Source: an uncultured virus (IMG/VR IMGVR_UViG_2061766007_001501) (taxonomy: Duplodnaviria > Heunggongvirae > Uroviricota > Caudoviricetes). Taken from it: 64,000 nt of DNA. Positions 11,923 to 58,534 of this stretch are shown here, piece by piece. Numbering within the stretch: the first letter of the stretch is position 1; each line of letters begins with the position of its first letter. The translations under genes were made by a program, and so were the position numbers. The notes beneath the pieces were generated by a model. That model made no database searches. It saw only the letters and a program-made list of their open reading frames with translations, and was not told the DNA's origin. The stretch lies in the IMG/VR virus record IMGVR_UViG_2061766007_001501. The stretch is one strand, 5' to 3'.

Positions 11923-11967
11923 TCCTTCCGCAATACTGCGTCTGTAATATGGATTCTGATTGTTCCG

Positions 11968-12408: not shown

Positions 12409-12409
12409 C

Positions 12410-13166: not shown

Positions 13167-13193
13167 GTTTTCTCCTTTATTGTTGCCTTTAAG

Positions 13194-18550: not shown

Positions 18551-18564
18551 ATCAGTTCACTCCT

Positions 18565-19146
18565 TTACGCTATGTTCCGTACCCGGTTGTACCAGGTCGA
18601 TTTTGAAATCCCAAGCCTTTTACAACAGGAGTACACCGTTTCTTCACCGGACAAACTCTTCTCATACAATTCGGCAAACAATCGCTCATCCACCTTCTTC
18701 TGTTTCCTGCCCTCTCTGTACTTTGGATCATGCTCCCGCCTTACTCGCTTGCCTTCGTTCGTCCGCTCAATAATCATATCCCGCTCAAACTCCGCAAACG
18801 CAAACATCACGCTCGCAAGCAGCCGTCCTATCGGCGTATTGTCCAACATCCCCATGTTTAAAACATGAACGGCTATTCCATCGTCCATCAGCTTCCGCAC
18901 AAGATCCGCACCGCCGACAACCGTCCGGGCCAATCGATCCAGTTTCGTGACAACAAGCCTGTCGCCAGACTTCAACAGTCCTATCAGCTTCGTAAATTCC
19001 GGACGATCCATCTTTGTTCCGGTATACGCATCGTGAAAAATCTGTTCGCATCCGGCTTGCTTCAGTGCGGACATCTGCGATTCCACACTGTTGCCATCTC
19101 GCTCTTGCCCGCGAGTGCTGACCCGGATATATCCGTAAATCATCAT
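18565..19146 (-). CDS. Small serine recombinase (resolvase/invertase family)
   Basis: YGYIRVST catalytic Ser, VVTKLDRLAR, FAEFERDMIIER, C-terminal HTH. Confidence 0.95.
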   Translation of the reverse strand: MMIYGYIRVSTRGQERDGNSVESQMSALKQAGCEQIFHDAYTGTKMDRPEFTKLIGLLKSGDRLVVTKLDRLARTVVGGADLVRKLMDDGIAVHVLNMGMLDNTPIGRLLASVMFAFAEFERDMIIERTNEGKRVRREHDPKYREGRKQKKVDERLFAELYEKSLSGEETVYSCCKRLGISKSTWYNRVRNIA

Positions 19147-19448
19147 TCATCACCTTCCTCTGACACGTCATCCGCTGGATTCTGTTCACTATCGTCCAGC
19201 GTGATCGTAAACGTCGGGTAGTACTCCCTTCCGGTTTCCGGGTCGTCAATCCGGCGCGTACTCTTCATGACAATCTCACATCCCATGGCATTCGCAATCC
19301 GAATCAGATTGTCCACGCGCATATGGCTCTTTCCTCTCAACATTTCCGATATGTTGCTCTGCCTTTTAAACCCGGCCATATGTGCAACAGTTCCTTGATC
19401 CAATCGTCTCGCCTTCATCATGGCGCGAACCGCATCACGTACATTCAT
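19143..19448 (-). CDS. XRE-type HTH regulator
   Basis: QGTVAHMAGFKRQSNISEMLRG...MRVDNLIRIANAMG. Confidence 0.8.
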   Translation of the reverse strand: MNVRDAVRAMMKARRLDQGTVAHMAGFKRQSNISEMLRGKSHMRVDNLIRIANAMGCEIVMKSTRRIDDPETGREYYPTFTITLDDSEQNPADDVSEEGDE

Positions 19449-19477
19449 GTTATTGCGCCTCCTTGTTGTTTGTGATT

Positions 19478-19507
19478 ATTGTATATCAATATTTTCTGTT
19501 TTGTCAA
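19478..19507 (-). promoter_or_regulatory. SigmaA promoter for the HTH-recombinase operon
   Basis: TTGACA-N18-TACAAT, followed by an AAGGAGG SD. Confidence 0.65.
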
Positions 19508-19584
19508 GGGCTTTTTTCTGATTTTCGGCGGTGGGAGGGGCGAGAAGGGTGTCCGGGGTTANNNNNNNNNNNNNNNNNNCTGGT

Positions 19585-19664
19585 CTGTAAAAAATCAGCG
19601 GGGAAAATTACAGCTTCCCCTGTAAAAATCAGCAGGGGAAAATTACAGCTTCCCCTGTAAAAAT
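19585..19664 (+). repeat. Tandem repeat of about 35 bp (two full units plus a partial) containing TTACA-N8-TGTAA
   Basis: ctgtaaaaa(a)tcagc(a)ggggaaaattacagcttccc repeated; left side cut by an N gap. Confidence 0.85.
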
Positions 19665-19840
19665 ATCGTCTGAAAATTGAACAGTTGCCGCATGAAAACA
19701 GACGAACAGAATTTTCTGAAAATTTTTTTATTTTTTTTTGAAAAAAAGAAGGGAAAACAGAATTTTCTGTAGAATTGTTACTACGTAACAGAATTTTCTG
19801 TTACACAAAAACCTAACAAATAAAGAAAGAAGGGTAAAAA

Positions 19841-20773
19841 ATGAGACGGGAAGCAAGGCAGGAAAGAACAGTGGATATCGCAAACGTTGCCGGATATCAT
19901 CACGGCAATAGTCAGTACGATGAATTTTTAGTATTTGCATCTGACCGTCCGAACAAGGCGAATCGCAACTACACGTTGCAGAAAGACGGAACGCTTCCGG
20001 CCATGATCGGGATTGAGTTTGAGACGGAGTGCTGGGGAATCACGAACAGCACAATCTATGCAAACCTTCTCCGCGACGTCGTGTTTAAAGTCTTTCCGGC
20101 AAACCTTTGGAAGATTGAATCTGATTGTACGCTGGACGGCGGCGACGTCGGCGCGGAGTGCATCACTCAGCCGATGACAAAAGCTTTCATCAGAAACCAC
20201 TATCGCGACTTCAAAGCTATGTATCAGTATTTCGAATCATTCGGAATCAGTGCTTCCCGTTCCGGCAATTGCGGACAGCATGCGCATATATCCCTAACAT
20301 GCTTCGGACGGACAAAAGCTGCGCAGGATGAAGCGATCAGAAAGCTGTTCTACATCGTTAACCGCCATTACGATCTGATTTGCGCACTGCTTTACAGACG
20401 CGCGGACAGACAACATTGGTGCGGACGCATGGATTATACGGAAGCCTGGACAATGGACTTGAATAACATGAGCGGCAGTCACGGGAATGGATGCAATTAC
20501 AGCCATTACAGCAACGGCAATATTGAGCTTCGCATCCCGGGCGGTCAGTTAGATTATCCCTGTTTCAGAAACACAATGGAAAGTATCTTCCATCTGATTG
20601 AAGCATCGAAAAGCATCAGCCGGAAAGATTGCGATGATATCACGAAAATTTTTGCCGGATGCAATCAGCATGTATTTGATCGTCTCCGTTCTTACTGCTT
20701 TGAGCGCGGAACAATCAGCGCGGAACAGCTGGAATCAATCCGCGCAACCGTGAAAACGGTTGATTTCAGATGA
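19841..20773 (+). CDS. Putative amidoligase (COOH-NH2 ligase type 2)
   Basis: IGIEFE, ESDCTL, GAECITQPM, CGQHAHIS, NIELR motifs. Confidence 0.8.
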   Translation: MRREARQERTVDIANVAGYHHGNSQYDEFLVFASDRPNKANRNYTLQKDGTLPAMIGIEFETECWGITNSTIYANLLRDVVFKVFPANLWKIESDCTLDGGDVGAECITQPMTKAFIRNHYRDFKAMYQYFESFGISASRSGNCGQHAHISLTCFGRTKAAQDEAIRKLFYIVNRHYDLICALLYRRADRQHWCGRMDYTEAWTMDLNNMSGSHGNGCNYSHYSNGNIELRIPGGQLDYPCFRNTMESIFHLIEASKSISRKDCDDITKIFAGCNQHVFDRLRSYCFERGTISAEQLESIRATVKTVDFR

Positions 20774-20883
20774 AGCAAAACGGCCGCAATTGCGGCGGCC
20801 GTTTANNNNNNNNNNNNNNNNNNNNNNNNNNNCGCTGTAAACGGCTGAAAAAGCCGAATAAAAGATGAAAGAAGGATATTCCA

Positions 20884-21225
20884 ATGACGAACAGCACAAT
20901 CATTCTAAACGAATCATTCAGACTGATGAAAGAAGGCGTCTTGTCCGGGTCCGGTCGCTTTGTACAGATCGACGGCGAAAACGGCCCGGAAACAGTAGAA
21001 TTGCCGGAAGCTATTCACACGTTCGCGGCATGGAAGGCGCGCGGTTATATCGTCCGTAAAGGCGAACACGCTATAGCCACTTTCCATGTATGGAAGTATT
21101 CAGACCGTCGCCGCGCTGATGCTGAAGAAAGCGAAACGGACGGCGAGCAGGAAAACGGCGGGCGTTGTTTCCTAAAAAAGTCGTTTTTCTTCAAAGCTTC
21201 TCAGGTAGAAAAAATTACAGCGTGA
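20884..21225 (+). CDS. ArdC N-terminal-like ssDNA-binding protein
   Basis: HTFAAWKARGYIVRKGEHAI...FFFKASQV matches the TFxxWxxxGxxVxKGE pattern. Confidence 0.7.
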   Translation: MTNSTIILNESFRLMKEGVLSGSGRFVQIDGENGPETVELPEAIHTFAAWKARGYIVRKGEHAIATFHVWKYSDRRRADAEESETDGEQENGGRCFLKKSFFFKASQVEKITA

Positions 21226-21296
21226 ACCGTAAAAACTCCGGCCCGTTTTGCGCGGGCAGGCGGGCCGGATAAAAAATACATTGGAGGTTGTAAAAA

Positions 21297-21494
21297 ATGA
21301 GCATCGGAAAAAACGTGTACTTCATCCCGTCCCTGAGCGAAAAACCAATCAAGGGAAAAATCGTAAAAATTCACACTACTTGCTGTAATTTTCGGGAAAT
21401 AACGATCAGAACTAAATCGGGCAATGAATACACCGGAACAGCTAATCAATTCTCGATCGGATATCCCGCCATTTGCAATTATTGGAGGTGCTGA
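21297..21494 (+). CDS. Hypothetical protein
   Basis: GGAGG SD inside the palindrome, ATG at 21297. Confidence 0.55.
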   Translation: MSIGKNVYFIPSLSEKPIKGKIVKIHTTCCNFREITIRTKSGNEYTGTANQFSIGYPAICNYWRC

Positions 21495-21645
21495 AAATGC
21501 TGTGTGTTCGTTTCGGTAAAGTATGTTTTCAAGTGTTCAATCGTGAGCGCGGGCGCTGGGAGTATATCCGTTTTGAGAAGTGGCTAAACATGCCAGAAGG
21601 TGCCCGGAAAAAGTACGATTATTAATTACAAGGGAGGATGTAAAA

Positions 21646-21843
21646 ATGAAAACTTGCCGCAAGTGTGGATCTGAAATCGTAAACGGGCGAAACGGCTGTC
21701 AGTTGCTCGAAGATATTTGCTTCGATTGTAATGGCGGCCATCCACATTATCCGCCGCCCGTCCGGATTGATTATCCGGAATCCATGGATTATCTCGACTG
21801 GATTGAAGGCAAATGTTTATCAATGGGTTATATGCCTGAATAA
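21646..21843 (+). CDS. Small Cys-rich hypothetical protein
   Basis: MKTCRKCG...CFDC; SD inside the palindrome. Confidence 0.6.
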   Translation: MKTCRKCGSEIVNGRNGCQLLEDICFDCNGGHPHYPPPVRIDYPESMDYLDWIEGKCLSMGYMPE

Positions 21844-21865
21844 TTTACAAGGGGGATTGTAAAAA

Positions 21866-22051
21866 ATGATTATCAATGACGTTGCCCATCTCATGACATC
21901 ACCGTTTATCGTTCGCCGTTCCGACGGTGCTATCCTTTACGACACAACGCAGCTTCATTGCGATCTTCCGCCGGATGTCGCCATATTGGAAATAAAATCT
22001 ATCCGTTCCGTTTCGTTTCCGAATTATCCCGTGATTATCTTTGACGTCTGA
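21866..22051 (+). CDS. Hypothetical protein
   Basis: 61 aa; SD inside the palindrome. Confidence 0.55.
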   Translation: MIINDVAHLMTSPFIVRRSDGAILYDTTQLHCDLPPDVAILEIKSIRSVSFPNYPVIIFDV

Positions 22052-22063
22052 GAGGTGATAAGA

Positions 22064-22705
22064 ATGTGTGTGATTGCCGTTTCGCCTGCCGGATGCAGGC
22101 AACCGAAAGAGAAAGATTTTCGCCTGATGTGGGACCATAATCCGCACGGTGCCGGGTTTATGTGGTGCGAGCATGACAAAGTATATATTCAAAAAGGGAT
22201 TATGTCGTTTGATGATTTCATGGACTGGATAAAATGCCAGCGATTCACGGCTGATGATCCTGTTGTATACCATTTCAGAATCAGTACGCAAGCCGGAACA
22301 GGGCCGGAAATGACACATCCGTTTCCGTTGTCCTCTGATCCTGACGAACTGATGAAAACAACGCCGCGCCCGTGTGATATTGGCGTTGCTCATAATGGGA
22401 TTATCCGGTTAACGTCTGACCCGAATGAATCGGTGTTTTCTGATACAGCGCTATTCATCCAGAAGTACATGACAAAAATAATCCGCTCACCCAACGACCT
22501 GGAATCAGAAAAAACAATCAACACGATTGATGCACTCGCCATGTCCAAGTTCGCTTTACTCAGAAATGACGGGCAGATCTTCACCATCGGCAAATTTTAC
22601 AGGCAGCCCGGTAAATTCCTGGTATCAAATGAATTTTACAAACCGGTTAGTAATTATTCCGGATGGTCCTATAACTACTTCAAAAATTTACATGTGGAGG
22701 TGTAA
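22064..22705 (+). CDS. Class II (Ntn) glutamine amidotransferase
   Basis: Starts MC; NPHGAG, HFRIST, THPF, AHNGII, SDT motifs. Confidence 0.9.
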   Translation: MCVIAVSPAGCRQPKEKDFRLMWDHNPHGAGFMWCEHDKVYIQKGIMSFDDFMDWIKCQRFTADDPVVYHFRISTQAGTGPEMTHPFPLSSDPDELMKTTPRPCDIGVAHNGIIRLTSDPNESVFSDTALFIQKYMTKIIRSPNDLESEKTINTIDALAMSKFALLRNDGQIFTIGKFYRQPGKFLVSNEFYKPVSNYSGWSYNYFKNLHVEV

Positions 22706-22708
22706 AAA

Positions 22709-23490
22709 ATGAATAACTATCCGGTTTATAAAAAGTGTCCATTATCCCGTGTTTCCCGTCGCCGATTCCATTGGAGCGACGGGGAAACATCCCTGAATGA
22801 CAACGGAATCAGAATCATAAAATCCCACAATCTCCCGTACTGCTACATTTTACAGAAATTGCACGTTCTTATTAATAATCGCTGGTGTCCGGTTGAATAC
22901 AGCCATATAAAAGGCGACACATGGGAAATGATTATATGGCATTTATGAAAGAGGTGTAGAAAATGAAATATCTGCAAGTTCCTGCCAGCCTGGATCAGAA
23001 ACAATTATATCATCCGAAAAGAACAAGCAATCACGGTTATTCAAAAAAGATTCCTAACGGTTATTACCTGATAGCGCACGAGCTTTTGACCGCTTCAGAA
23101 TGTAAACGCATCAACGCTCCAGTCGAGCTCTTAACACCTGTTGAAATAAAAAAGACTAAGACATATTGGTGCTTCGGCGCCCGTTTCCAGTGTGAATAAT
23201 TTACAAAGGAGGATGTAAAAATGTTCTTCAGCTTCATGGTCTATATTGACGGCGGGACAGATCACGACGGGAACGACATCATGATGAAAATTGCCGTTCC
23301 CGCAAAGGATGAACAGGACGCGCGGGATTATGTGGCCGGAAACGGCGAGATTATCGCCGTGCGTGATGTATCGGATGAATACCGTATCAGCGCATCTCGG
23401 GTATATGACGCGCTGGAAAAAGCCAATTTCACGCAGCACGAAATAGACTTCATTGTCCGGACACTTCAAAGAACAGAGATAGCACGATAA
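22709..23490 (+). other. Three small hypothetical genes (22709-22948, 22963-23199, 23221-23490)
   Basis: Each has an SD and a TGTA(A/G)AAAA(A)TG-type start context. Confidence 0.65.
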
Positions 23491-23514
23491 AAAAACACAT
23501 GGAGGTATGTAAAA

Positions 23515-23883
23515 ATGAAAACTTCAGAAACAGCACGCGAGATTTCCGCGATCATTCTTCAACAGCTCGGTGGCAGGCATTTCCTGGTAATGACCGGCAG
23601 CAAAAACCTCGTCTATGGAACCGATGACAATTACCGCGATTTTCTACGAATGAGCCTACACAAAAACGCAAGCAAGGCGAACCGTCTGACAATCTACTAT
23701 AACGCTGGCATGGATGAATATAACATGGTTTTCGAAAAAATCACACTGCCGCGCTGGTGCCCGAAACAATTTAAATATTCAGACTACAAACAAGAGACCA
23801 TAAAAGAATACAACGGCATTTACTTCGATCAGCTCCAGGAGCTTTTCACAGAAACAACCGGTCTGCTGACCAGCCTGTTTTAA
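23515..23883 (+). CDS. Conserved-looking phage early protein
   Basis: ILQQLGGRHFLVMTGSK...KANRLTI...DEYNMVF pattern. Confidence 0.6.
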   Translation: MKTSETAREISAIILQQLGGRHFLVMTGSKNLVYGTDDNYRDFLRMSLHKNASKANRLTIYYNAGMDEYNMVFEKITLPRWCPKQFKYSDYKQETIKEYNGIYFDQLQELFTETTGLLTSLF

Positions 23884-23913
23884 CCAAAATATTTACAGAA
23901 GGACGTGTAAAAA

Positions 23914-24645
23914 ATGAAATACCTTACACCCGGCGGTTCCCGTTTCACGCTCTACTCTTCCATGCTGGATCAGTCGCACTTGCTTGTCGCAGGTGCGACC
24001 GGCTCCGGTAAATCCGTTTTGATGAACAGCCTGATCAGCACGGCACTGCTGGACAGTCCCGCCGCCGCTCGACTTGTCCTGCTCGATCCGAAAATGACGG
24101 AGCTGTTCCAGTGGGAAAAACTCCCACATACAATCCGCTACAGTTTCGAACAGGATGAAATGATAAAGGCCCTCCGCGAAACGATAGAGATCATGGAGTC
24201 CCGTTTACGGCACCTCCGGACCATGGGCGAAAGACTCTGGACGGGCGCACAGATCTATGTGGTGATTGACGAACTGGCGGACCTGCTGACCACAAACAAA
24301 GTCGAAGTCACGCCGCTCTTGCAACGTATTATGCAGCTGGGCCGGGCGGCCGGAATCCACGTCATAGCAGGCACACAATGCCTGCTGGCGTCGATCCTGC
24401 CCACGCCCATCAAAGTCAATTTTCCCGCCGTCGTTTGTCTCAGAGTCGCAACAAAACAGCAATCCCGCTTTATCTGCGATAAAACCGGCGCGGAACAGTT
24501 TCCGGACCCGAAAACAGCCGGAAAGGCGCTGGCGTTCTTCCGGACCGGCGCGGACATTAAACAGTTTGAGGTTTACGCTGTTCCGGAATCGGAACAGAAA
24601 CGGCTCGTTTCCTGGTGGACGGGAACAGAATCGGTTATTGGATGA
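23914..24645 (+). CDS. Stand-alone FtsK/SpoIIIE-type ATPase domain
   Basis: HLLVAGATGSGKS, LLDPK, VVIDELADL, LGRAAGIHVIAGTQ; no membrane domain. Confidence 0.9.
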   Translation: MKYLTPGGSRFTLYSSMLDQSHLLVAGATGSGKSVLMNSLISTALLDSPAAARLVLLDPKMTELFQWEKLPHTIRYSFEQDEMIKALRETIEIMESRLRHLRTMGERLWTGAQIYVVIDELADLLTTNKVEVTPLLQRIMQLGRAAGIHVIAGTQCLLASILPTPIKVNFPAVVCLRVATKQQSRFICDKTGAEQFPDPKTAGKALAFFRTGADIKQFEVYAVPESEQKRLVSWWTGTESVIG

Positions 24646-24659
24646 AAGGAGAATTTACA

Positions 24660-26077
24660 ATGTATTACGTAATTTATGATACTGTTTCCGGACGTTTCCG
24701 GCGCGACTTCCCCGGTTTCCTCGCCGCGTTTCGTTTCGCTCATCAACTGGAACAGACAACCGGGATCAACGCTTGTCTGTCATACGTTTTCCGGCACGGA
24801 AAAAGCGTATCCGTTTACCAGCGCCAAGCCGCCACGGTGCCGGTCCCACAAACACAACTTGCATGGAATTAAGGAGGATTTGAAAATGTTCTACGGTTCT
24901 TATGTTCTCAATGGCGAAAAGCACGCTGCAATCTATGACTCTTGGGATTTATGGCACCGCGACACATTCTGTCCGCTTTGCGAAAAAATCACCGTTATTC
25001 CATTTGAAACGCACGGAAAATCCTATGCTGACCGGCGCGAATCCGTCCGGGAAACGGCGGTTGAATGGTCCAATTGTGGCGAAGCGTGGCCGCTGTCATG
25101 GGGCGAAGTGCAGACCATTGTGGACTGGTTCTATCGCATGGGGAAACGCTACGGCCTGCTGTCGGAGTTCCGCGAAAACGGGCTTTGCTGAACACGATTC
25201 AGTCAAAAAACAGATTCAGAAATTACAACGGAGGATGTAAAAATGGACAATCAGGAAGTATTTGACAAGCTCAGTGATATCGAATGTTATCTGTTTTATG
25301 AAATCGACAATCCGACCCAGAACACAGCCAACATCGACCCGGAAAAGCTTAAAGCGTTCCACAATGCCATCGACGAAGCCCTGCAAGCATGGCACGATCT
25401 GACCGGCTGCACGCTGATGCACTGATCCGTTGCAATCCAATAAAATCCGTTATAAAATAAGCAAAAACAGGAGGAAAAAACAATGAAACGGACCTATGGA
25501 AACGAAAAAACCAATCTCACCCTTTCTGGAAAGGCCTTGGACTTCTACAACATGGCCGACCCGATCACGATCATCGAAGAAGAACAGGAAAACGGCGAAT
25601 ATCTCTATCAGGTCCTGTCCGGTCGCGATCTGCTCCATGACGGACTGATGACTGAATCTCAGCTCATCAAGTGGCTTGAAGATGGATATAATGAAGCAAT
25701 GACAGAGTGCTAAATATGACCGGAGAACACGCCAGTATGCAAAACATGTTTGAAGTATAAATCAAACATGAATATAATAAAAAAATATGGAGGAAATCAC
25801 AATGAAAAAAGCTGATGGGATCATTACAACCACATTTGAAACAGACAATGAAGACTTCTATATCGACATTGTAGAGCATAAAACCGGAGATACCCAATGG
25901 GACGTGTGGTTGTACCACAAGGATATCTGCGTCAAAGAATTCGTCATCGGCAGCGCCAGAAGCAATGGCGAAACGTTGGAATCTATTCTGGAAGAAATGG
26001 AAACTTATCTGTACGAATCAGGGAATGACGGACTGGACTTCTTCGATCTATATGAAGAAAGATACATGACAGAATAA
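24660..26077 (+). other. Five small hypothetical genes (24660-24872, 24886-25191, 25243-25425, 25483-25713, 25787-26077), several acidic
   Basis: GGAG(G) SD sequences and co-orientation with the island. Confidence 0.65.
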
Positions 26078-26085
26078 TCTACTCC

Positions 26086-26108
26086 GACCGGCTCCGGCCG
26101 GTCTTTTT
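26086..26108 (+). terminator. Intrinsic terminator closing the island
   Basis: gaccggc-tccg-gccggtc followed by ttttt. Confidence 0.75.
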
Positions 26109-26407
26109 ATACCCTTTTTTCCGTCCGTTCCTGCCCGTTCTGTGCCGTTTTAATCCGGAGCGGTAGTTTCAGTCCAACCCATGCCAATCGGCCCGTTCCT
26201 GCCCGTTCTGCGCTGTTCCGGGCGGTGTACGTTTGAACGGTCCAGAGCCGTTCCAACAGAAAAAGCAACCTGCTCGCGTATTAAGGTATTATTATTATTT
26301 ATAACGTACATTTAATATATATATAGTGTACGATTATAACGAATAATATATCCTACATCGCGGGCAGGTTGCTTTCTTGTATTTTGCGCCATTCCGGCGT
26401 ACTCGTG

Positions 26408-26977
26408 TCAATCCGTTTCGTCCGGCTCCGGCAGTGCGTCTATAATGCGTTTCCGGGCTGCTTCTTCATCCAGGTTTTGCAGCGGATTGTTCGGCGTGAC
26501 AACAACCTCAGTGGTATCTGTATATCCGTAATGGTTCTTACCAAGGAAGATCAGATTTGGCGGGGCGGCCTTCCCGTTCAGCATGTAATCCTCCCACATT
26601 TCCTCGATAAAATTGTATGCTTTTTTTATCAAGTCTAAGCTTGCACTGTTTATCGTTTTCCCTATCGTCCCTGCCTTCCATGTCCAGAGCGTTTTTCTTG
26701 ACACGCCCAGAGCGTTAGCGAGACCAACAATACCTGGTTTCATATCGTTTTCCGCGCATCGCCCCAGATACCAGTTAATTCTGTCCTGCACTTCTTCCGG
26801 CTTGTCCATATCGACAGGCGGAGCATTAAACGATGCCATTGCGAACGATATATATTTAGCGTTATCGCCCGGTTCAACATACTCCTGACCGAAGTTGGCA
26901 AGATCCGGACGGTTTCGTTTCTTTTTCTTAACGATATCAACCGCCTGTTCATCGGATAATCCGGTTTTGTTCGTCAC
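26408..26977 (-). CDS. terS: Terminase small subunit
   Basis: KPGIVGLANALGVSRKTLWTW HTH, LIKKAY, IFLGKNHYGYTD. Confidence 0.8.
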   Translation of the reverse strand: MTNKTGLSDEQAVDIVKKKKRNRPDLANFGQEYVEPGDNAKYISFAMASFNAPPVDMDKPEEVQDRINWYLGRCAENDMKPGIVGLANALGVSRKTLWTWKAGTIGKTINSASLDLIKKAYNFIEEMWEDYMLNGKAAPPNLIFLGKNHYGYTDTTEVVVTPNNPLQNLDEEAARKRIIDALPEPDETD

Positions 26978-27153
26978 GTTTCAATCGACTCCTTTCGTAT
27001 TGTTCCCGTTTCGCACTAATCCTATCACATTTCGCACAAAAACGCCACTTTTACGGTGCCTGCCATCTGAACGTCCGTTTTCTCACGTTTCAATCCAAAC
27101 GGGCCAATTTACCCCGTTTTGTGCCATTCTGCGCGTTTTAATCCAACTTGCCA

Positions 27154-32715: not shown

Positions 32716-34619
32716 TCAGAACGGCAGATCATCTCCGGCATCCACCACCGTATACCCGTCGTTCCTATCCGTCTCTTCCGGCGCCGTTTCCGTCCGTTCC
32801 GTCTCCTTCTGCTCCGCGTCCTCTTCGTCATACACCAGCGCCACGCACGGGACCTTCGCGTCCCCAACCTTCTTCCGCTTTGTCAGCCGGTTGTTTGCGC
32901 TGCCCGTTCCGTATTCGTCCGTCAAAATCTTCCGGTTCCGCTTCGCCCAGGTCAGGAACGATCCCGGGCTGAACCCGCCCTTCTGCAACTCCCGGTCAAA
33001 GATCGTGCGGATGATGTACACCACATTCTCTTCCCGAACGCCCCATTGCTCGCCGTTGTTGTTGTCGTCGGTAAAGCGGATCTGGTTCGCGCCGATCACG
33101 CCCAGCAGCCACTGATAGCACCGGAAGTTCNNNNNNNNNNAGGTACGGTTTCACTTCCTCCACCGTCAGCGCCTTCCCGTCCTTAAACAGCAGCACTTCC
33201 GCCAGCTTGTCCGCCGCCAGCAGGATGGAAGCGGACAGCACCTGCTTGTCCTGAATGTCCCCGCTCAGTTCGTGGTAATACCGCTGCTGGATGACCTTCA
33301 GCGCTTCCACGTTCTTCTCGTTCTTCAGCGCTTCTACAAACCGCCGCCCCGCGAATCCGTAGTGGTCCTTCAGCGCTTCGGCCACCTTCCGNNNNNNNNN
33401 NNNNNNNNNNNNNNNNNNNNNNNNTGAATTGCTCTGCACAATCGGCATTTCCCCGCTCGTCAGCACGCACGTACACCACCGCCGCTGAAGCTGAAGTCCG
33501 CCTTCCCTGCTTCCGCGGCCCTTGCTCATGCCCTCGCACAGCATGTAGATGATGTCGTCAAAACTCTTCCGGTCGCTGATCACCTGCAGCTCGTCCAGAA
33601 AGATCGGCACGTTGCAGCAGAACGCAGCGTACAGCTCGTGGCTCACCTTCGTCCCGCCGAAGTGCTTGAGATACCCGGCGCCTGTGTCCGGATTGCCCCA
33701 GACGCTTGCCGCCANNNNNNNNNNATCCCTGCGTCCCCCACAGATGCACAAAGAAGCTCAGCGCGTGACAGATGGACACAATCGGAGCCGCAAAACTCGC
33801 CGCCAGCGCGATCCGGGCCGGTACGCTCGTTCCACTCCGAACCTCCTTCGCGATCTCCATCCATGTATCGAAGTCCCCGTGCTCCTTAAAGTTGTCGAAC
33901 ATCCGGATAAACTCGCCGTTATCCCCGTCGTACACAACCTCTTTGCAGTATGGCGAAAACTGTCCGTTCGGCAGCCAGCCCATATGCCCCGTGCTCTGCT
34001 GGTTCGGCAGGTCCTCATAGTTGATGCTTTCCAGCTCCGTCAAATACTTTACGACTTCCTTCGCGTTCTCGCTGTTCACGGCGATGCCGTTCCGGGCCAG
34101 GGCGATCACCTTCTGTGCGGAAGCGAGCTGTTCCCTTCCGGCGATCAGGCTCCGCCACTTCCCGCCCCGGCTGTAGGCGATCTCCAGTTTTTCCTCGTTG
34201 CTGTCGATGTTCACGATGCGCTTCACCGGCATGATCGGATGGGAGCAGACTTCCACTTCCTCCCCCATCCGTCCCGTGTAGGCGATGCCGAACTGGTCGC
34301 AGATATACTTTCCGCTGTGCAGCTGCACCGGCTGGTCCGGGAACATCGTCACAAAGTCGCCGAGAATCTGCTGTTTCGGTTCCTTCGCTTCCAGGTATTT
34401 CTTCCAGATGCCGAGAAACCCGGAGAACTTCAGCCGCTTCGCGATCAGGTTCATTTTCCCCAATAACTGCTGTTGAAGAAACGGGTTGTCCTTCTGCGCG
34501 TACAGCCACGCATACGGCTTGTNNNNNNNNNNNNNNNNNNNNNNNNNNNNNNNNNNNNNNGTCGCGTCCTGCGGTTCCGTCTCCGGCTGGTTGTTTACGA
34601 TTGTCGCCGCCTCGCTCAT
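32716..34619 (-). CDS. DUF927-domain replicative helicase, broken by N gaps
   Basis: HMGW, FFVHLWGTQG.. Walker A, PIFLDELQ, GKGRG-like and HYGFAG motifs. Confidence 0.8.
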
Positions 34620-35059
34620 TGCTGTCCCGTTCCTTCCTGTAGATATGCTTTTACGATCCTGCCGAGTACGTCATAAGCGCACGGAAGTGCGATGCCATTC
34701 CCCCATAGCTTGTACTGCGCTGAATCGCTTCCTTCCGCCCCGTCGCACCACCAGTCTGGGAATCCCTGTAATCGCGCACACTCCGTCGGTGTCAGGCGGC
34801 GCAATACATACTTTCTTGCGTCCTGTTCCATGTTGTCCTCCTGTACTAAATCTCTTGCGTCCTTGTAGTCTCTGTGAGCTAAGGTGCTCGATACCCCCCC
34901 CCTCACAAATTCCNNNNNNNNNNNNNNNNNNNNNNNNNNNNNNNNNNNNNNNNNNNTTTCTATCACCGGGAGCATGTTGTTGAACGCGTCCTGCCCGGTA
35001 TAACTCCCCGGATGACTGTTCGCGCACAGCGCGCCGGTAATTGTCGGATATACTTTCAT
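34616..35059 (-). CDS. C5 DNA methyltransferase C-terminal polypeptide (TRD modules plus terminal conserved motifs)
   Basis: RRLTPTECARLQGFPD...YKLWGNGIA. Confidence 0.85.
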   Translation of the reverse strand: MKVYPTITGALCANSHPGSYTGQDAFNNMLPVIEXXXXXXXXXXXXXXXEFVRGGVSSTLAHRDYKDARDLVQEDNMEQDARKYVLRRLTPTECARLQGFPDWWCDGAEGSDSAQYKLWGNGIALPCAYDVLGRIVKAYLQEGTGQQ

Positions 35060-35065
35060 AAACGA

Positions 35066-37553
35066 TCAATCCCTCGCTGCCGCCCCAATGTCACCACCGG
35101 ACACCAGGAGAGTGGGCAGCCCTTCCTCGTGTTGCGCGTAACGGTTTGCGACAAACATTACCAATGGAACGTTGCCCCCCCTGTACCGCATCTGGCGGAT
35201 AGCGTCTGGCACGTTCCGCTTTCGTCAATCCGTACTCTGCTGTCCGCAGGGTGATTCTCGATCATGTAATAATCGTTCATGGCATATAACCTGTGCTCCC
35301 TTGTAGTCTGTCGAGGTCAGGGTGTTCGCTTTGTTTTCCGTCACCATCATGCTGATCTCCCGTTCCATCATAGCGAGTACCCTCCCTCGGGATTTCCGTA
35401 ACACACGCATTGCGGGAACTTGTAATCTATCCTCGCAACCGTGGATGCCACGCCATCCGCATGAAATCCGAGCCTTGTTCTATATGGGATCATGTTGATT
35501 ACCTTCATCGTTCTTTCTCATTTCAGCACTGTACGCAACGATGCCGGGGTCTTTGAAATCATTGGCTGTCAAGGTATCGCAGCNNNNNNNNNNNNNNNNN
35601 NNNNNNNNNNNNNNNNNNNNNNNNNNNNNNNTGTTCATTCATGTTCTCCATCAGCACCGGATTCAGATAGTTATAACTGAATCCTCCGCTTTCCTTTGCC
35701 TGCAAAGTTCCGCTCCTGTTCTCGTTCAGTTCCAGATTTCTACAGTCCACGCTGTAACAAATCATCATGCCGCCCTGATTGCAGCTCGGCTCAAGGCATC
35801 TCGTATCCAGGCATTTCGCAACCTGCGTTTCATGGATTCCGCTGTGCGGATTGCTGCTCTTGAAACTGTTGCTGCTGATTGCGTCCAGCGAATAACAAAC
35901 GCTATGCCGCTCTATCGTATTCAGCGTGAACGATTTGCCGGATTCGCTGTACCCCCCCCCTAAATGAGAAGGCCGTGCGCCGTTGCCCTCAATGGCAATT
36001 ACCACGGCGTGCCGGTCCTGCGTGTTCAGCGTCGGACTCACGTTCTCACACCAACCTCTACCGTTCTTACTGCTTGCTCTGTCCACGGTGTTTCCCTCAA
36101 TGGCGTACACGATCCCGTGCACCTGTCCTCCGGCCGCGTTCCCCGCGTCCAACGTTCTATACACTCCGTTCACGTCGTAAATCTTCTTGTTCTGGCAGTC
36201 CCACGGGTTCAGGCAGTTCACGCTGTTTTCTGTCATAGAGTACATATCCCTTTCCGCCGCCCTGTCCCGCATATAACGTATACCAAACGCCATCTGCCGC
36301 GAACACCTGTCTGCTTTGAACGTCCCAAGGCGTTATGCATCCTGTAACTTCTGATTCTTCCATCTGAACCTTACCTTGCAGCCTTTTTGTGACCTGTACC
36401 GGGTGTTCGTGTGCTTGCATTCGCATGATCCGGTCCGGTGATTGTGAAATGTTCCGTGGTTCAGCCCTATCTCGCATTTCCCCCATTTCAGGTATATATC
36501 GTCCGGCACCCAATGCGCGCAGTTTGCACAGATTCTCGCTGTGTCGCTTCTCGCCGCGGGCCGGATATATGAATGATAATCACCTGTCATCTTCTCTCTC
36601 TCCTACCAGATAATATCTGCTATCATTTACAAGTGTCGGACATGGATCGCCCGGTTGCGGATTGCTTCCGCTGTTCGCGCTCGTGATGATGATGCCTGGA
36701 TAGACAACATAATTTGTGTTATGCATGCCGGACTCGGCTGTAATCGCACCGGCGCACATCCCCATATCGCGCACTTCCTCACGCTGGTTCTGCTGAAAGC
36801 AGACAACATGAACGTCATGTCCGTGCATTGCGTTCAATGAAAAGCACTTCCCGTTATCATTCGTTCCGCACATTCCCTTGTTCCCCTGAAAATTCAGACA
36901 GATGATTTCCTGAAACATACAGCATGAACTCCGCTTGCCTTTTCTGTCGGACAAATATTTTCGTAATAGCACGGTCCCTGCGCTGTGCAGTTTCCTCCGG
37001 TTGTCACAACATGGTCGATCGCATAGCATACAGCAGGTTGATTGTCACCCATCTCTGCCCGCAACGTTCCGCACATATCCTCGACAAAACGGCTTCCGTT
37101 CCCTTCACGCTTCGCGATTCCGGGTTCAAAACAGATGATTGGAAGCGCCGCATGGCTTTCTGCGCGAAGCGTTTCCGCAACATCGCCCGATTCATACCAG
37201 CGATTGGTGAGTCCGCATACAACCGGCGGATGCCCGTGATCCTGTGCCCTAAGTGTCGCCGCGATGTCGGACGTTTCCATTACAGATCCGCCCTGATCGT
37301 TCAGCACAATCACGCTCGGCCCGGCATGCGTTGAGGATGAACACGCGTTCGCTGTGAGCGTTACGGCTTTGTCGCCGGAAAGGCATCCGTTGTAGATGTC
37401 GCATCCGATGACGGAAGGTTCAGATCGCTGTGTACCCCCCCCCTATGCGATCAAGCACGACNNNNNNNNNNNNNNNNNGTTCTCGCCTTCCGCTCTCAGC
37501 GTTCCGCACCCTTCCATCCAGTATCCCTTCCCGGATTCGTTAAAAATCCTCAT
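35066..37553 (-). other. Array of about 20 TRD-like modules of a C5 methyltransferase in several short ORFs
   Basis: Repeated TL-type units (TLRAE, TLRAQ, TLDAG, TLNTQ, TLQAK, TLTST, TLSAR); ORFs 36894-37553 (frameshifted), 36580-36918, 36157-36363, 35480-36236, 35368-35508, 35225-35371, 35158-35280. Confidence 0.75.
36333..36590 (-). CDS. Cys-rich hypothetical gene inserted in the TRD array
   Basis: CANCAHW...C; no TL module. Confidence 0.5.
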   Translation of the reverse strand: MTGDYHSYIRPAARSDTARICANCAHWVPDDIYLKWGKCEIGLNHGTFHNHRTGSCECKHTNTRYRSQKGCKVRFRWKNQKLQDA

Positions 37554-38055
37554 CGTTGAAGTCGTTCCTGTCTTCGTCCATCATGAAAACGCCGTCATCA
37601 AACTCTGCGCCGTCGTCCGGAAGTTCTTCGTCATTCACATCCAAACCAGCGAAACGGCAGGTCTCCGTCAGGGCTTCCAGCAACATAGTCGGAAGCTCTT
37701 TTCCACGCTTCCTCGCCCTCCGCATGATCCCAAGCGCCGCTTTCCCGCTCAAAGAATATCTCTCCGGCGCGTTCAGTTGCAAAATCTGCGATAAGGTAGA
37801 TTCTGCGCCGCCGCTGCGGAACTCCCCACCCCTGGGCGTCGTACACCCGCCAGGCAACGCTCCAACCGTGTCCCAGTATGCACCCAAAAGGTTTCCACCC
37901 CCCCCTCGGAGGTCCAGGAACAGCATCGTCGGCGTTTCCGACAACGTCGGCAAACGCCTGGAGGACTGCCTGGAAGTCTTTTCCGTCGTTGGAACTGAAT
38001 GCGCCGGGGACGTTTTCCCACACAGCGAATCGAGGAAACTTATCTGCTGTTGCAT
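37540..38055 (-). CDS. Overlapping alternative-frame methyltransferase subunit (M.EcoHK31I beta-like)
   Basis: GGAG SD; LSQILQLNAPERYSLSGKAALGIMRRA; mostly nested in the catalytic gene. Confidence 0.7.
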   Translation of the reverse strand: MQQQISFLDSLCGKTSPAHSVPTTEKTSRQSSRRLPTLSETPTMLFLDLRGGGGNLLGAYWDTVGALPGGCTTPRGGEFRSGGAESTLSQILQLNAPERYSLSGKAALGIMRRARKRGKELPTMLLEALTETCRFAGLDVNDEELPDDGAEFDDGVFMMDEDRNDFNDEDF

Positions 38056-38377
38056 ACCGCATCTCCTTTATAATCCGTATTGCTTCAAAAAACAGGTTCG
38101 ACCGTTCTCCGTCGTGTATGCCAAGCTGCTTTCCGGCAACCGACAGATCCTGGCATGGGGAACCGAATGTGATAATATCCACCGGTTCAACCTCGTCGCC
38201 TTTTACGTCCGTCACGCTTCCAAGGTGCTTCATCCCCGGAAATCGGTTCGTTGTCACCCGAATCGGAAAAGGTTCGATCTCCGACGCCCACACCGGCTCA
38301 ATCCCGTGCAGTGCTCCGGCCAGCGGAAATCCTCCGCTCCCATCAAACAAACTGCCGAGCTTAATCTTACCTTCCAT
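37631..38377 (-). CDS. C5 DNA methyltransferase N-terminal catalytic polypeptide (motifs I-VIII)
   Basis: SLFDGSGG, GSPCQDLS, WENVPG, GVPQRRRRIY. Confidence 0.92.
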   Translation of the reverse strand: MEGKIKLGSLFDGSGGFPLAGALHGIEPVWASEIEPFPIRVTTNRFPGMKHLGSVTDVKGDEVEPVDIITFGSPCQDLSVAGKQLGIHDGERSNLFFEAIRIIKEMRYATADKFPRFAVWENVPGAFSSNDGKDFQAVLQAFADVVGNADDAVPGPPRGGWKPFGCILGHGWSVAWRVYDAQGWGVPQRRRRIYLIADFATERAGEIFFERESGAWDHAEGEEAWKRASDYVAGSPDGDLPFRWFGCE

Positions 38378-38850
38378 TCTTCCTCTCCTTCCACACTTCC
38401 CCCAGGTAATCCATCATCGTCACCATCATCGGAATAATCAGCGGGTTCCCGTCGTGTTCCGCCGCTGCTCTTTCGCACTCATTTGCCGCTTTCACCCAAT
38501 ATTCCTCATCATCCCGTGGCGGATAAAACTGTTCCAGGAAGTCAAACGCCGCCCGGAACGCCGCCTGATGCAGTTTCTTTGTTTTTGCCGCTTCCTCCAT
38601 CGCTCTGTCAAATTCCAGCAGCTCCCGCGCAACCGTATCCGCTGCCATCGTTTCGTCACCTTCCTTCCCATATCACATGGTCTTTATCATCCACAGCACA
38701 AACAGCACAATCAAAACCCACCAGTACCATGCCAATGGCGATCTCTCCGTTTCGCAGCCTTCCGATCCCGCACGATGCCGACAATTCCGAACACGACGCA
38801 TACCGCCAACAGGACGCACACCGTAATCACCCACGGATTGCCCCAGTCAA

Positions 38851-39516
38851 TCACGATCCCGTTCTGCATAGCTTCCACACCTCATACTCGATACTGTCCC
38901 GGTATTCCCTCAACCAATCGATGTTGTTCGCCGCGATTACATACCGCCACGAAAAGCCCTCATCCGGCGTTTTAGGCCCTTCCCGCTTTAGTACCTGCTC
39001 CGCGTACCATACGGCGTCGGAAGCGTCCAGAAGGGNNNNNNNNNNNNNNNNNNNNNNNNNNNNGCTCCGCTTGCTCCCGTTCTGCCCGTTCCTGCCGCTT
39101 CTGCTCATACTCCCGGCGCCGTGTTTCGCTCTCGCTGTGGTACACCGCCTGCTTCATGCGATCTGCGAGATTTCCCCGCATCCCGTCCGCCTCCGTTCCG
39201 TTTCGCGTACCTCGCCGCGTTCCTTTCCCGCGACCGCCAGTTCTTTTCGTCCNNNNNNNNNNNNNNNNNNNNNNNNNNNNNNNATGAATCCGCATCCGTT
39301 CACCTGCTTCACCAGGTCGATGGTCCCCCCTGAGGCATGGCATGTGAAACAGTAAAAGCCGCGGTCGCCCGGATACAACTTGCAGTTGTTCCTTTCTCCG
39401 TGATGCACAGGGCACTTGCACCGTCCGGCATGGTCGATCTGCAATCCCAATGCCCGCGCTGCCTCGATCACCGGCACATCGGAGCGTATCCTGTCCGCAA
39501 TATACTGAACGTCCAT
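38851..39516 (-). CDS. CHC2 zinc-finger primase-like protein, spans N gaps
   Basis: CPVHHGE...FYCFTCHASGGTIDLV. Confidence 0.75.
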
Positions 39517-40397: not shown

Positions 40398-41414
40398 TCA
40401 GACAAATCCGTCTTCGTGGTTTTCATTCGTGATTCTCCCGTCCATTCTTGACTTGTTCATGATGTAATCCTCAAACTTCGGAACGCTTTTGAATACCTGT
40501 TTCGCATTGCACCATGATTGCAAGTGCCTTATTTCCTTCGGCGCGTTCGGCTTGTTGTAAATCATCAGGTACGGGTCAAATCCGTGTTCCCGAAGCCAGT
40601 AAATCCGGTAAAGCGCCCGTTCAATGTGTTCCTCAACCGTAACATTCTCAAAGTTCGTCAGACAGTACACCATGCCGATATTGCTTTTCCTTCGGAACCG
40701 ATTCGCAAAGTTCTCAAACTTCTCTTCGAGCCTGTCTTCCGGATTATCCCAGGCAAAATGCAGCGTTCTCAGCCGCATCCGGTTAATATTGTCTATGTCC
40801 TCGTCGTTCAGGCATCGAATATCCAATCCTTGTGTGAAGTCCAGCATTGCCCCGGTTTCCCTGTATTGCCGCATCAGGTCGCGCTTCTCTTTGCAGGCCG
40901 TAATGTTTGGGTCGAGAATCTTGATCTCTTTCTTTCCAGTTTCCGGCATCCAAAAGTCGCTCACATCCGCAACCTTCGTACTGCACCGCCCTTCTTTAGC
41001 CGCCACATGGCAGAACTGACAACCTCTCGGACATCCACGGCTCGTCATGCTCACAGCGTAGTCAAACTGCGGATAAATGCTGTAGTCCGGAAACATCCGT
41101 TCAATCTCGTCCTGGAGCGTTGCGTGTTTGTTCTTGTCAAACACTTCCTTTCCATCTACAAGCGATATGGCGTACCCCGTGCCGCCCTTCACCACCCGGT
41201 CCGCGTTCATCGGCTCCGGCACGTCCGGCGAGTAAGCGTTGCTGAACACCTTGCTCATGTACACGATGTCGTAGTGAACGAAGTCCGTCCACCACCACTC
41301 CACTTCGTCGCCCTGTTTCTTATGCCATGCGGAAATCCTCATCAGCGCCAGGTTTGGGAACTTTGCTTTCCTATGGTGAGCCATCGCGTCCACATCGATC
41401 AGACCGATCTTCAT
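40398..41414 (-). CDS. Radical SAM protein (phage type)
   Basis: MKIGLIDVD...FPNLALM; SRGCPRGCQFC (CxxxCxxC). Confidence 0.85.
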   Translation of the reverse strand: MKIGLIDVDAMAHHRKAKFPNLALMRISAWHKKQGDEVEWWWTDFVHYDIVYMSKVFSNAYSPDVPEPMNADRVVKGGTGYAISLVDGKEVFDKNKHATLQDEIERMFPDYSIYPQFDYAVSMTSRGCPRGCQFCHVAAKEGRCSTKVADVSDFWMPETGKKEIKILDPNITACKEKRDLMRQYRETGAMLDFTQGLDIRCLNDEDIDNINRMRLRTLHFAWDNPEDRLEEKFENFANRFRRKSNIGMVYCLTNFENVTVEEHIERALYRIYWLREHGFDPYLMIYNKPNAPKEIRHLQSWCNAKQVFKSVPKFEDYIMNKSRMDGRITNENHEDGFV

Positions 41415-42112
41415 GCTCCATGTCCTTTTACAAAGCGTTCGGGTATTGGCTCTGATATTATTCTTTCTTCCGGCCAACCACGAAATCGTCTATCATAAAT
41501 AACGTGTTGCGGTATATCCAGTATCTTTGCCCACTCTTTCGGAGAATGTGTTTCGCCGTTGTATGTAAGAAAGATATTTCTTCTGGTGTTTCCGCATTGA
41601 ATCTCCCTTGTGGCCCATCTGCAATTTTCAGGACAATAGTTACCGTCATTGTTGATCCTGTCTATTGATAGTCCCTTGCCATATCCATGGGATAAAGACC
41701 AATCGCGGAAAGCAAGATAATCGTTCCATTCATCGCAAATGGTTATGCCTCTGCCACCATAATTCTTGTATTCTTTGTTATGCGAATTAAAGCACCTTTC
41801 TCTCATTCCTTTCCAAATAAAATAAAGGCGCTCTTTTTTTGAATACCCATGCGTGACGTTTCGTTTCATGCAAATTTCATATGCTTTCTTTCGCTGAACG
41901 CATCCGCAACTGATTGCAGCATATGATGTAAGATTGCTTGTCATGGTGTATGTAATGTTCCCGCAATCGCACATACAACGCCAGTATGCTTTTCCTTTTC
42001 TAAGCCCAACATACTCCTGCACGACAAGGTTTCCAAATCGTTGTCCGGTAATATCTCTTACGTGTTTCCCCATGGGCTTATATACAATCTCGCCAAGCTG
42101 TTCAAACGTCAT
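41411..42112 (-). CDS. HNH-type homing endonuclease
   Basis: DITGQRFGNLVV, CMCDCG, YGGRGI, SIDRINNDGNYCPENCRWAT; AT-rich. Confidence 0.85.
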   Translation of the reverse strand: MTFEQLGEIVYKPMGKHVRDITGQRFGNLVVQEYVGLRKGKAYWRCMCDCGNITYTMTSNLTSYAAISCGCVQRKKAYEICMKRNVTHGYSKKERLYFIWKGMRERCFNSHNKEYKNYGGRGITICDEWNDYLAFRDWSLSHGYGKGLSIDRINNDGNYCPENCRWATREIQCGNTRRNIFLTYNGETHSPKEWAKILDIPQHVIYDRRFRGWPEERIISEPIPERFVKGHGA

Positions 42113-53040: not shown

Positions 53041-53382
53041 TCACGCCTTGCCTTCTTTCTCCGCGCTCTCGATCATCCACCCAAGGTAAACCTGCGCTTT
53101 TTTCAGGTCCTGCACGCCGTCCTTTTTCCGCCACCGGCTCACGTATTTCAGCACGTTTCCGCAGCAGTATTCCGTGAATCCTTCCGGCGTCAGTTTATCC
53201 CGGATGTAGTCGATGACTTCGATCTCGCCCTGATAATGTGCGGGCTTGTTTACCATATCTTTTCTTTCTTCTTCTTGCGGCGGTAATGCTCTACATCCGC
53301 CTGTTTCTGAGGTGCAATATCCGTTTACGGATTTATCGCAATCCGCAGTACATTTATTCCTTGTATCGGCAGTTTCTTTCAT
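53041..53382 (-). CDS. DUF3310 (T7 gp1.7 nucleotide kinase-like) protein
   Basis: DMVNKPAHY...GNVLKYVSRWRKKDGVQDLKKA. Confidence 0.8.
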   Translation of the reverse strand: MKETADTRNKCTADCDKSVNGYCTSETGGCRALPPQEEERKDMVNKPAHYQGEIEVIDYIRDKLTPEGFTEYCCGNVLKYVSRWRKKDGVQDLKKAQVYLGWMIESAEKEGKA

Positions 53383-58225: not shown

Positions 58226-58534
58226 ATATCCTTCATTAGTTGCTCACGTATTGTGTTTATCTGTCTCAAAAAAATTAATCGCAGCTGTTCCCGATTTCCA
58301 TGTACACCGCGTCCCCGTGCATCCACGTCCGGTACACGCCATATCCGCATTGCCAGCACGTTCCGGTGTTTCCGTTCCGCTGATCCAGCATGTCCAGCAC
58401 AGTTTCTTTCAGTTCGCCCTGCTCCATGCTGCCAAGCTCGTTCAGTTCATGATTAGTAAACCCGGAAATTTTCATGACCTTTACGCCGATTCCAATCCGG
58501 TCCGTTTCAATCTTCAGCCGTTCCATCTGTTTAT

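Follow-up and report, generated by a model that had tools for sequence, protein, structure and literature searches.

The 64-kb window analyzed here, taken from a cattle-gut phage (IMG/VR record IMGVR_UViG_2061766007_001501), carries on its minus strand, at 38377-34616, a locus in which the catalytic motifs and the recognition units of a DNA methyltransferase (MTase) lie in separate reading frames. It is best explained as the cytosine-C5 DNA methyltransferase locus of a phage that resembles the Heliusvirales. We read it, with a probability of about 0.6, as encoding a multi-polypeptide, M.AquI-like methyltransferase of the multispecific type with slippage-prone switches. This reading is drawn from the division of the motifs, from breaks that are present in the DNA and partly shared with relatives, from the long-term constraint on open reading frames (ORFs) made up of putative target recognition domain (TRD) units, and from a concentration of poly-G tracts inside the locus.

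Division of the methyltransferase among separate ORFs

The first ORF of the locus (38377-37631, minus strand, 248 aa; the N fragment) amounts to the N-terminal two thirds of a C5-MTase. It matches PF00145 with an E value of 7.3e-34 (profile positions 2-132 plus a second stretch) and phrog_116 with an E value of 2.2e-59, and C5-MTase motifs I, IV (PCQ), VI (ENV), and VIII (QRRRR) are all present. The stop at 37631 closing motifs I-VIII, proposed in an initial annotation made from the sequence alone, is therefore borne out. Motifs IX (RRLTPxEC.RLQGFPD) and X (GNG) are missing from this chain and lie, as that annotation had also proposed, in a separate downstream ORF at 35059-34616. The 98 aa of this last ORF that follow a run of Ns (N-run) match PF00145 profile positions 258-323 (E value 1.2e-11), and in a profile search of PDB sequences its motifs IX-X align with M.HaeIII, M.HhaI, and others. 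The 10 intervening pieces are all without a match to PF00145.

Three-frame translation shows TL-type units of 20-45 residues each in all three frames, 22 as counted by eye. They are spread over 11-12 frame segments, and a chain with several tandem TRDs between motifs VIII and IX is not found in this copy. In 15 aligned sequences, the TL of the last unit stands 17-28 residues before the RRL of motif IX. The PDB profile matches begin at motif IX, with only 3g7u extending back to the unit, and phmmer with the last 181 aa of a single-chain relative found no match among PDB sequences. The predicted gene plan of the window copy is N fragment, nested ORF, ORF L, Cys-rich ORF, ORF M, and C fragment. 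Its features are as follows, with relatives cited by their L and P handles.

37631-38377, minus strand: N-fragment ORF, 248 aa, motifs I-VIII, ending at TGA; homologous stop in L026-L029, L033, L037, and L041.
37540-38055, minus strand: nested +1-frame ORF, 171 aa, with an acidic tail; shares 425 nt with the N fragment.
37898-37905, minus strand: poly-G tract T1 (G8), where the nested ORF overlaps the N fragment; in frame in the window.
37479-37553, minus strand: start of ORF L, ATG at 37553 (14 nt ahead of the nested-ORF stop), 'MRIFNESGKGYWMEGCGTLRAEGEN', running into an N-run; same N terminus in P0258 and P0282.
37462-37478: N-run of 17, true length 21 nt; contigs from sequencing runs X1 and X2 insert CCCG behind 37478, which lets the frame ahead of the gap run on as VVLDRIGGG.
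37435-37443, minus strand: poly-G tract T2 (G9), a frame break within ORF L; G8 would give 'RIGGGTQRSEPSVIG', and the counterpart in P0282 reads 'CIGGGGQSNPSVIGCDIYN', in frame.
36894-37442, minus strand: middle piece of ORF L, 182 open codons, five TL units, ending CFRKSSV before the stop; same end in P0259 (92% identical).
36580-36918, minus strand: last piece of ORF L, three units, -1 frame, internal ATG, ending YYLVGEREDDR before the stop; same C terminus in P0372 and P0369. P0258 joins GVHAVCF to QQNQREEVRD in frame at the corresponding junction.
36333-36590, minus strand: Cys-rich ORF, 85 aa, with its own Shine-Dalgarno (SD) site (AGGAG); a cluster of 15 members.
36157-36363, minus strand: one-unit mini-ORF, 'MEESEVTGCITPWDVQS...GYVLY', tail out of frame; same tandem in L028, L030, and L040.
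35632-36245, minus strand: ORF M, the second TRD-only ORF, five units, entering an N-run at NPVLMENMNE; P0122 and P0123 are 95% identical and end NMNERQV.
35952-35960, minus strand: poly-G tract T3 (G9), read in frame (SHLGGGYSE); L031 carries G8 at the homologous position, which breaks its frame.
35584-35631: N-run, bridged by no listed contig piece.
35480-35583, minus strand: piece S10, unit 'CDTLTANDFKDPGIVAY'; in L030 in frame with the next unit.
35368-35508, minus strand: piece S11, one unit from an ATG.
35225-35410, minus strand: piece S12, one unit, with GAGGGAGGG ahead; the unit type is internal in P0143.
35158-35280, minus strand: piece S13, 'MNDYYMIENHPADSRV...QTLSARCGTGG', homologous to the start of the relatives' C-fragment ORF.
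35175-35181, minus strand: poly-G tract T4 (G7), a break within a unit (GTGG/NVPLVM); L031 has the same G7 and the same break.
35066-35212, minus strand: piece S14, the rest of the T4-broken unit and one more, with an in-frame TGA end.
34616-35059, minus strand: last ORF, two units plus motifs IX and X; SD GAGGGA ahead of the ATG.
34894-34902, minus strand: poly-G tract T5 (G9), in the last ORF, in frame.

The Cys-rich ORF (36590-36333) also answers to the initial annotation, which had noted an unrelated Cys-rich gene between the catalytic pieces. Its 90%-identity cluster comprises proteins of 84-85 aa; it has no Pfam or PHROG family, and its atlas neighbors are only viral hypothetical proteins or clusters.

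Annotation pipelines miss most of such a locus, leaving its pieces named hypothetical or uncalled. Among the window ORFs, an exact database look-up matched only the N fragment and the Cys-rich ORF; none of eight short ORFs was found, their start codons being guesses that may differ from those of the gene caller. A megablast comparison of 25 kb of the window with GenBank phages found no match. The gene content of the window comprises a portal, a major head protein, a terminase, a sliding clamp, a primase/helicase, further helicases, and a radical SAM enzyme, with most genes on the minus strand.

The breaks are present in the DNA

The 45 N-runs of the window (10-810 nt) mark scaffold gaps whose lengths are estimates; the reading frame changes from one side to the other, and contigs from re-assembly add letters inside. 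Only three fall within the locus (37462-37478, 35584-35631, and 34914-34956) vs. at least 11 frame breaks, in agreement with the earlier claim that most of the breaks are real stops and not gaps. The same annotation had named a continuous ORF in raw reads as one finding that would overturn it. We compared Logan contigs from X1 and X2, two runs of the probable source sample (a cattle gut metagenome, depth 7-10), and these independent contigs reproduce the breaks: they cover 35632-37116 and 37180-39252 with no substitutions and with indels only at N-runs. Contigs of X3 and X4, two runs of another study that bear organism names and may come from cultures harboring a related prophage, cover 36910-37240, 37049-37275, and 37540-38207 without indels. 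Runs X5-X20 contain small shares only (0.11-0.15).

Direct repeats in the locus do not exceed 21 nt, and inverted repeats do not exceed 25 nt (72-87% matched). The assembler was therefore not misled by repeats, and misassembly of repeated units is rejected. Three genes elsewhere in the window are split (sliding clamp, primase/helicase, and TerL), all of them at N-runs, and the portal, major head protein, radical SAM, and helicase genes are whole (88 + 64 ORFs scanned). Reassignment of a stop codon was also considered and rejected: the pieces lie in different frames and end at all three stops (TGA in eight, TAA in three, and TAG in two), so a changed genetic code cannot join them. We conclude that the breaks are present in the DNA and are peculiar to this locus. 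An artefact of assembly or sequencing that hides a gene continuous in the phage would draw on the scaffold depth of 7-10, on the many gaps of estimated length, and on the proneness of long poly-G runs to error. It is nevertheless extremely improbable, given that both source-run re-assemblies are identical base for base, that the other study matches over three stretches, that the same breaks recur in other data sets, that other window genes are broken only at N-runs, and that no repeat could mislead the assembler.

Single-chain and split relatives

Human-gut Ca. Heliusvirales phages and IMG/VR contigs carry an N domain ∼60% identical to that of the window. Most of these human-gut relatives encode one chain of 450-780 aa with 8-14 units, so that several tandem putative TRDs stand between motifs VIII and IX of a single protein. 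Motifs I to X lie in one frame in 16 of 18 IMG/VR loci (one of the remaining two is cut by a contig end, and one is broken) and likewise in PV036426 and PV036421. The unit arrays are mosaic because their order in relatives is not colinear with that in the window. A genome-contig scan returned only two loci, both 31% identical.

Closer relatives from metagenomes and IMG/VR are split like the window (L026-L031, L033, and L037-L041, with L039 being the same 81.6-kb phage as L027). Their N-fragment stop is homologous to that of the window ('...AYVAGRPDGSGWLRWCGD' compared with '...DYVAGSPDGDLPFRWFGCE', each directly before the stop). A TRD-only ORF comes next, opening with a Lys-rich leader and VIVLNDQGG. 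A conserved NPVLxEN closes a TRD-only ORF, and the C-fragment ORF starts with MKCYAIE[DN]HPxDSRV and ends with motifs IX-X. In L027, L028, and L029 this C ORF begins 'MKCYAIEDHPNDSRV'; AAGGAG (ATGGAG in L028) lies 6-8 nt ahead of its ATG, which abuts or overlaps the upstream stop. Judged by these signals, the conserved boundaries are ordinary boundaries between genes with predicted translational coupling, and the gene is split between motifs VIII and IX into adjacent cistrons, as in M.AquI. On a tree of the N domain with 16 rows, the six split forms group together (support 99/97). This tree left out L003, L006, L007, L009, L010, L014, L016, and L017 as near-copies or truncated, L026 and L033 as partial, L038 for its frameshifted N fragment, L039 as the duplicate of L027, and L040 for having no N domain.

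A comparison of TRD order with related phages, suggested in the initial annotation, thus yields a mosaic of order and content together with a plan of four to five ORFs that is conserved in the clade. The annotation had described about 20 free-standing modules. Their number holds, with 22 units recognized, but the design was overstated, because several breaks cut inside a unit or sit in poly-G, and the conserved plan has only four to five ORFs.

Some breaks set the window copy apart even within this clade. ORF L has two internal breaks, the G9 tract at 37435-37443 and a one-base shift at ∼36915; the latter is common to P0259 and is not in P0258. The mini-ORF ahead of ORF M is out of frame with M, the same as in L028, L030, and L040, and it is in frame in P0125. 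The C region of the window copy is in six pieces.

A nested ORF within the methyltransferase gene

The nested ORF (38055-37540) has 338 database homologues. Matches by tblastn reach 102 phage records, among them P1/P7 Dmt, Vibrio phages, and Mycobacterium phages, and in each of the four annotated records checked, the ORF is offset by +1 from the MTase coding sequence. Its SD (AAGGAG) and ATG are encoded within an invariant main-frame IIKEMRYA, and all 22 loci covering this region contain a nested ORF opened by an ATG. Besides the window, the conserved ORF was noted in L002-L019, L021-L023, L025-L029, and L033. A conserved second ORF in another frame of the MTase gene, the arrangement known from M.EcoHK31I, is thus found here. 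The pS of the N fragment (window 38377-37634 vs. L026-L029 and L033) is 0.43-0.62, below that of the other MTase pieces (0.70-1.0), which fits dual coding with constraint from the nested ORF. In the split clade, its acidic tail overlaps the start of ORF L. ORF L is without a good SD of its own, and its translation may be coupled to that of the nested ORF.

A structure model of the nested ORF has a mean predicted local distance difference test score (pLDDT) of 63.4 and is confident only for a helical hairpin at residues 104-135 (helices 104-117 and 123-135). It has no Foldseek match in the PDB at E ≤ 0.001, and the sequence has no Pfam or PHROG match.

TRD-only ORFs are widespread and constrained

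ORF M has 508 homologues of 120-384 aa (E ≤ 1e-5). Among the best 120 of these 508, motif I occurs in none and motif IX in two; 67 of the 120 carry the conserved tail at their end, and 51 begin with M..C[LM]NPW. ORF L has 259 homologues; 118 were examined, and motifs I and IX are absent from all of them. Full-length enzymes fall outside the length range searched, so the counts show TRD-only proteins to be many and not a majority. They form hundreds of database clusters.

We compared the window with seven split relatives using codon pairs from protein-similarity alignments. In the TRD-only pieces, pN is 0.2-0.4 against a saturated pS of 0.7-0.9 (0.22-0.38 and 0.68-0.85 for ORF M), and pN of the catalytic pieces is similar at ∼0.19-0.23. 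The selection check proposed in the initial annotation for the short ORFs therefore finds non-synonymous change far below synonymous change, in the long term only. This comparison shows long-term constraint on the TRD-only ORFs at the level of the predicted protein.

Poly-G tracts are concentrated in the locus

The window contains six G/C homopolymers of at least 7 nt, and five of them are inside the 3.8-kb locus, which makes up 5.9% of its length; under random placement, the probability of at least five tracts in this share is ∼4e-6. The five locus tracts (G8, G9, G9, G7, and G9) are all G on the coding strand and lie inside coding sequence, a feature on which the initial annotation is silent. 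Two of them, T2 and T4, coincide with breaks, and three, T1, T3, and T5, are in frame. Close relatives differ from the window in tract length and frame outcome at T1 (P0009 and P0013), T2 (P0282), and T3 (L031). At T1, P0009 and P0013 pass from the N frame into the nested frame, and P0024 makes the same switch at the homologous point. L031 has eight tracts of at least 7 nt in 1.5 kb, L041 has two, and the other split relatives have none; the nine single-chain relatives examined have no poly-G of at least 7 nt except for one G9 in L013. Taken as sequence, the pattern is the signature of putative slipped-strand contingency loci.

Proposed organization and competing explanations

These findings suggest a history in which the ancestral form, kept in the human-gut relatives, was a single chain running from motifs I-VIII through 8-14 TL-type units to motifs IX-X. 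In the clade of the window, the gene would have become a translationally coupled operon of an N fragment, the nested +1 ORF, one or two TRD-only ORFs, and a C fragment, with the small Cys-rich ORF added in the window's sub-lineage. By analogy with M.AquI and with fragment complementation, the N and C fragments would reassemble into an active enzyme. The TRD-only chains would be made and would supply recognition modules or assist the enzyme in some other way; that they act in trans is what we infer from their conservation, their coupling signals, and the constraint on them. The poly-G tracts would be slipped-strand switches turning single pieces or the whole enzyme on and off, and the remaining extra breaks may be scars of cassette insertion or early decay. 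The initial annotation had offered either a multi-subunit MTase with exchangeable specificity subunits or a reservoir of TRDs for recombination. The former gains from the conserved breaks, SD sites, stop/start overlaps, and constraint, while the assembly of the enzyme and the role of free TRDs are matters of inference. The reservoir is without support, the locus having no long repeats and its pieces carrying translation starts. A more far-reaching version, in which free TRD chains plug in trans into the split core and the five tracts switch single chains or the whole enzyme to give a switchable repertoire, is tentative, and we would not bet on it.

Several observations weigh against a functional multi-polypeptide enzyme in this copy. 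The window copy has more breaks than any relative examined. The breaks at T2 and T4 fall inside units, and an in-frame TGA precedes the last ORF, with an SD and an ATG two codons later. The last ORF itself spans the N-run at 34914-34956, and as one continuous ORF it is putative. Because the codon pairs were picked by protein similarity and pS is saturated, a recent relaxation in this copy would stay hidden. Variation in tract length was found between samples only, contigs dropping minor variants, and the out-of-frame length of T4, the same in the window and L031, is as compatible with a lesion fixed long ago as with a switch. An AlphaFold2 prediction of ORF M alone (45 sequences) gave no fold (mean pLDDT 32.6). 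Among the relatives, L038 has a frameshift inside motif IV (3915-4683), and L041 (reverse strand, 4509-5201 and 5481-5918) has an in-frame stop inside a unit. These plain lesions show that decay does occur in the family. In L041, the unit behind a G7 tract is also out of frame, with motifs IX-X still in frame.

Partial decay of this copy is accordingly a serious rival. It would hold that the split enzyme of the clade is functional, that this copy is mostly or wholly inactivated, and that its short ORFs are debris. Such a decaying pseudogene would account for the breaks inside units, for the in-frame TGA, and for at least 11 breaks here vs. three to five ORFs in L027-L029 and L037, and the lesions of L038 and L041 offer precedents. 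We nevertheless consider it unlikely. The N fragment and the ORF with motifs IX-X are open, have SD sites, and keep their poly-G tracts in frame; all 22 units are still recognizable, several at ∼90% identity to relatives; and three of the breaks are common to other samples (P0259; L028, L030, and L040; L031). Moreover, no other window gene is broken outside N-runs, and parts of the same sequence occur without indels in two runs of another study.

The remaining explanations dispense with separate chains or with expression of the modules. The pieces could be joined at expression, by transcriptional slippage on G tracts or ribosomal frameshifting, into what is effectively a single chain. Two breaks do fall in homopolymers, a G7 and a G9, at which the gain or loss of a single base would bring the frame back, and the conserved junctions N to L and M to C both need a -1 shift. 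These junctions, however, resemble ordinary gene boundaries, with AAGGAG and an ATG abutting or overlapping the upstream stop; no slippery heptamer is seen at the N-fragment stop; at least nine breaks are without a homopolymer of 5 or more; and a fused product would need ∼10 successive events. We judge joining at expression very unlikely. Silent cassettes that recombine into the expressed gene to change its specificity are likewise improbable. The mosaic order and content of units between relatives and a DNA invertase gene 16 kb away would suit them, but the locus lacks inverted and direct repeats above the lengths given earlier, and the conserved starts, SD sites, and ends of the TRD-only ORFs would be needless in silent cassettes. 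For want of adequate repeats, a shufflon or inversion mechanism was rejected. A coupled, multi-polypeptide methyltransferase with slippage-prone tracts remains our preferred account.

Relation to known systems

Multispecific phage MTases are a classic anti-restriction device, with a few enzymes known, each with a few modules in one chain. The Bacillus phage C5-MTases M.SPRI, M.Phi3TI, M.H2I, and M.phiBssHII are single chains with a few TRDs. The locus resembles them in being phage-borne, in having a catalytic core with several TL-type modules between motifs VIII and IX, and in a presumed anti-restriction role, and it differs in having ∼22 units distributed over separate ORFs. Phase-variable MTases with homopolymeric tracts include the Type III mod genes; these and the poly-G contingency genes of Campylobacter and Helicobacter usually have a single tract each. 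The locus shares with these the poly-G tracts in coding sequence, their enrichment, and lengths that differ between close relatives with a predicted on/off effect. Unlike these bacterial genes, it is a phage operon with five tracts in different cistrons, and as such would be a rare phage-borne contingency locus.

According to PMC3404938, the large subunit of M.AquI carries motifs I-VIII and the small subunit the distal variable region with motifs IX-X. The first and last ORFs of the locus apportion the motifs likewise. M.AquI consists of two chains with a single specificity, whereas the window adds TRD-only ORFs, the nested ORF, and the Cys-rich ORF. Natural (M.AquI) and artificial C5-MTase fragments complement when split between motif VIII and the recognition region (PMC3404938; PMC2836561). 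The second ORF of M.EcoHK31I, like the nested ORF here, overlaps the MTase gene in a different frame over all or most of its length (PMC2836561). The beta chain of M.EcoHK31I, however, carries motif IX and is required, whereas motif IX of the window is in the last ORF. With the single-chain Heliusvirales MTases (e.g., XTK82899 of PV036426, annotated as hypothetical), the locus shares ∼60% identity in the N domain, the unit types, and the nested ORF; those enzymes occupy one frame of 450-780 aa, and the window copy is split and rich in poly-G.

The main-text portions of the literature searched describe neither many-module split C5-MTases in phages nor TRD-only cistrons or poly-G tracts in such enzymes, and they do not mention a nested ORF in phage MTases. 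The available part of the Heliusvirales paper reports that a DNA methyltransferase is common and says nothing further on it, and that of PMC11954522 contains nothing on multi-module enzymes.

Gut phages thus carry up to ∼22 modules, and a whole clade encodes them as separate, conserved, apparently coupled cistrons without catalytic motifs. If the TRD-only chains work in trans, target recognition by C5-MTases is more modular than the solved monomeric enzymes suggest, and recognition modules would be easier to mix, both in nature and in engineering. The split layout and the tracts may let the phage vary which restriction sites are protected. Were the switchable repertoire real, a phage population would carry many methylation patterns and hedge between classical and methyl-dependent restriction.

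Other observations in the window

Further candidates for DNA modification lie at 55606-58243 and 40401-41489 (minus strand). One is an additional DNA methyltransferase (phrog_67), either fused to a helicase or next to one; the others are an ORF resembling nucleoside 2-deoxyribosyltransferases and a radical SAM protein.

A TerS-like ORF (26411-26980) and the TerL pieces (10204-11639) are ∼15 kb apart. Between them lie a stretch of lower GC content (0.38 at 14-16 kb), a DNA invertase gene (18568-19146), and a block on the plus strand that contains an FtsK/SpoIIIE-like gene (23911-24642). The region at 10204-26980 may be an inserted element or an invertible region. At ∼53096-53160, a 65-nt match of 84.6% identity links the window to the Bordetella phages BPP-1, BMP-1, and BIP-1, near bbp48.

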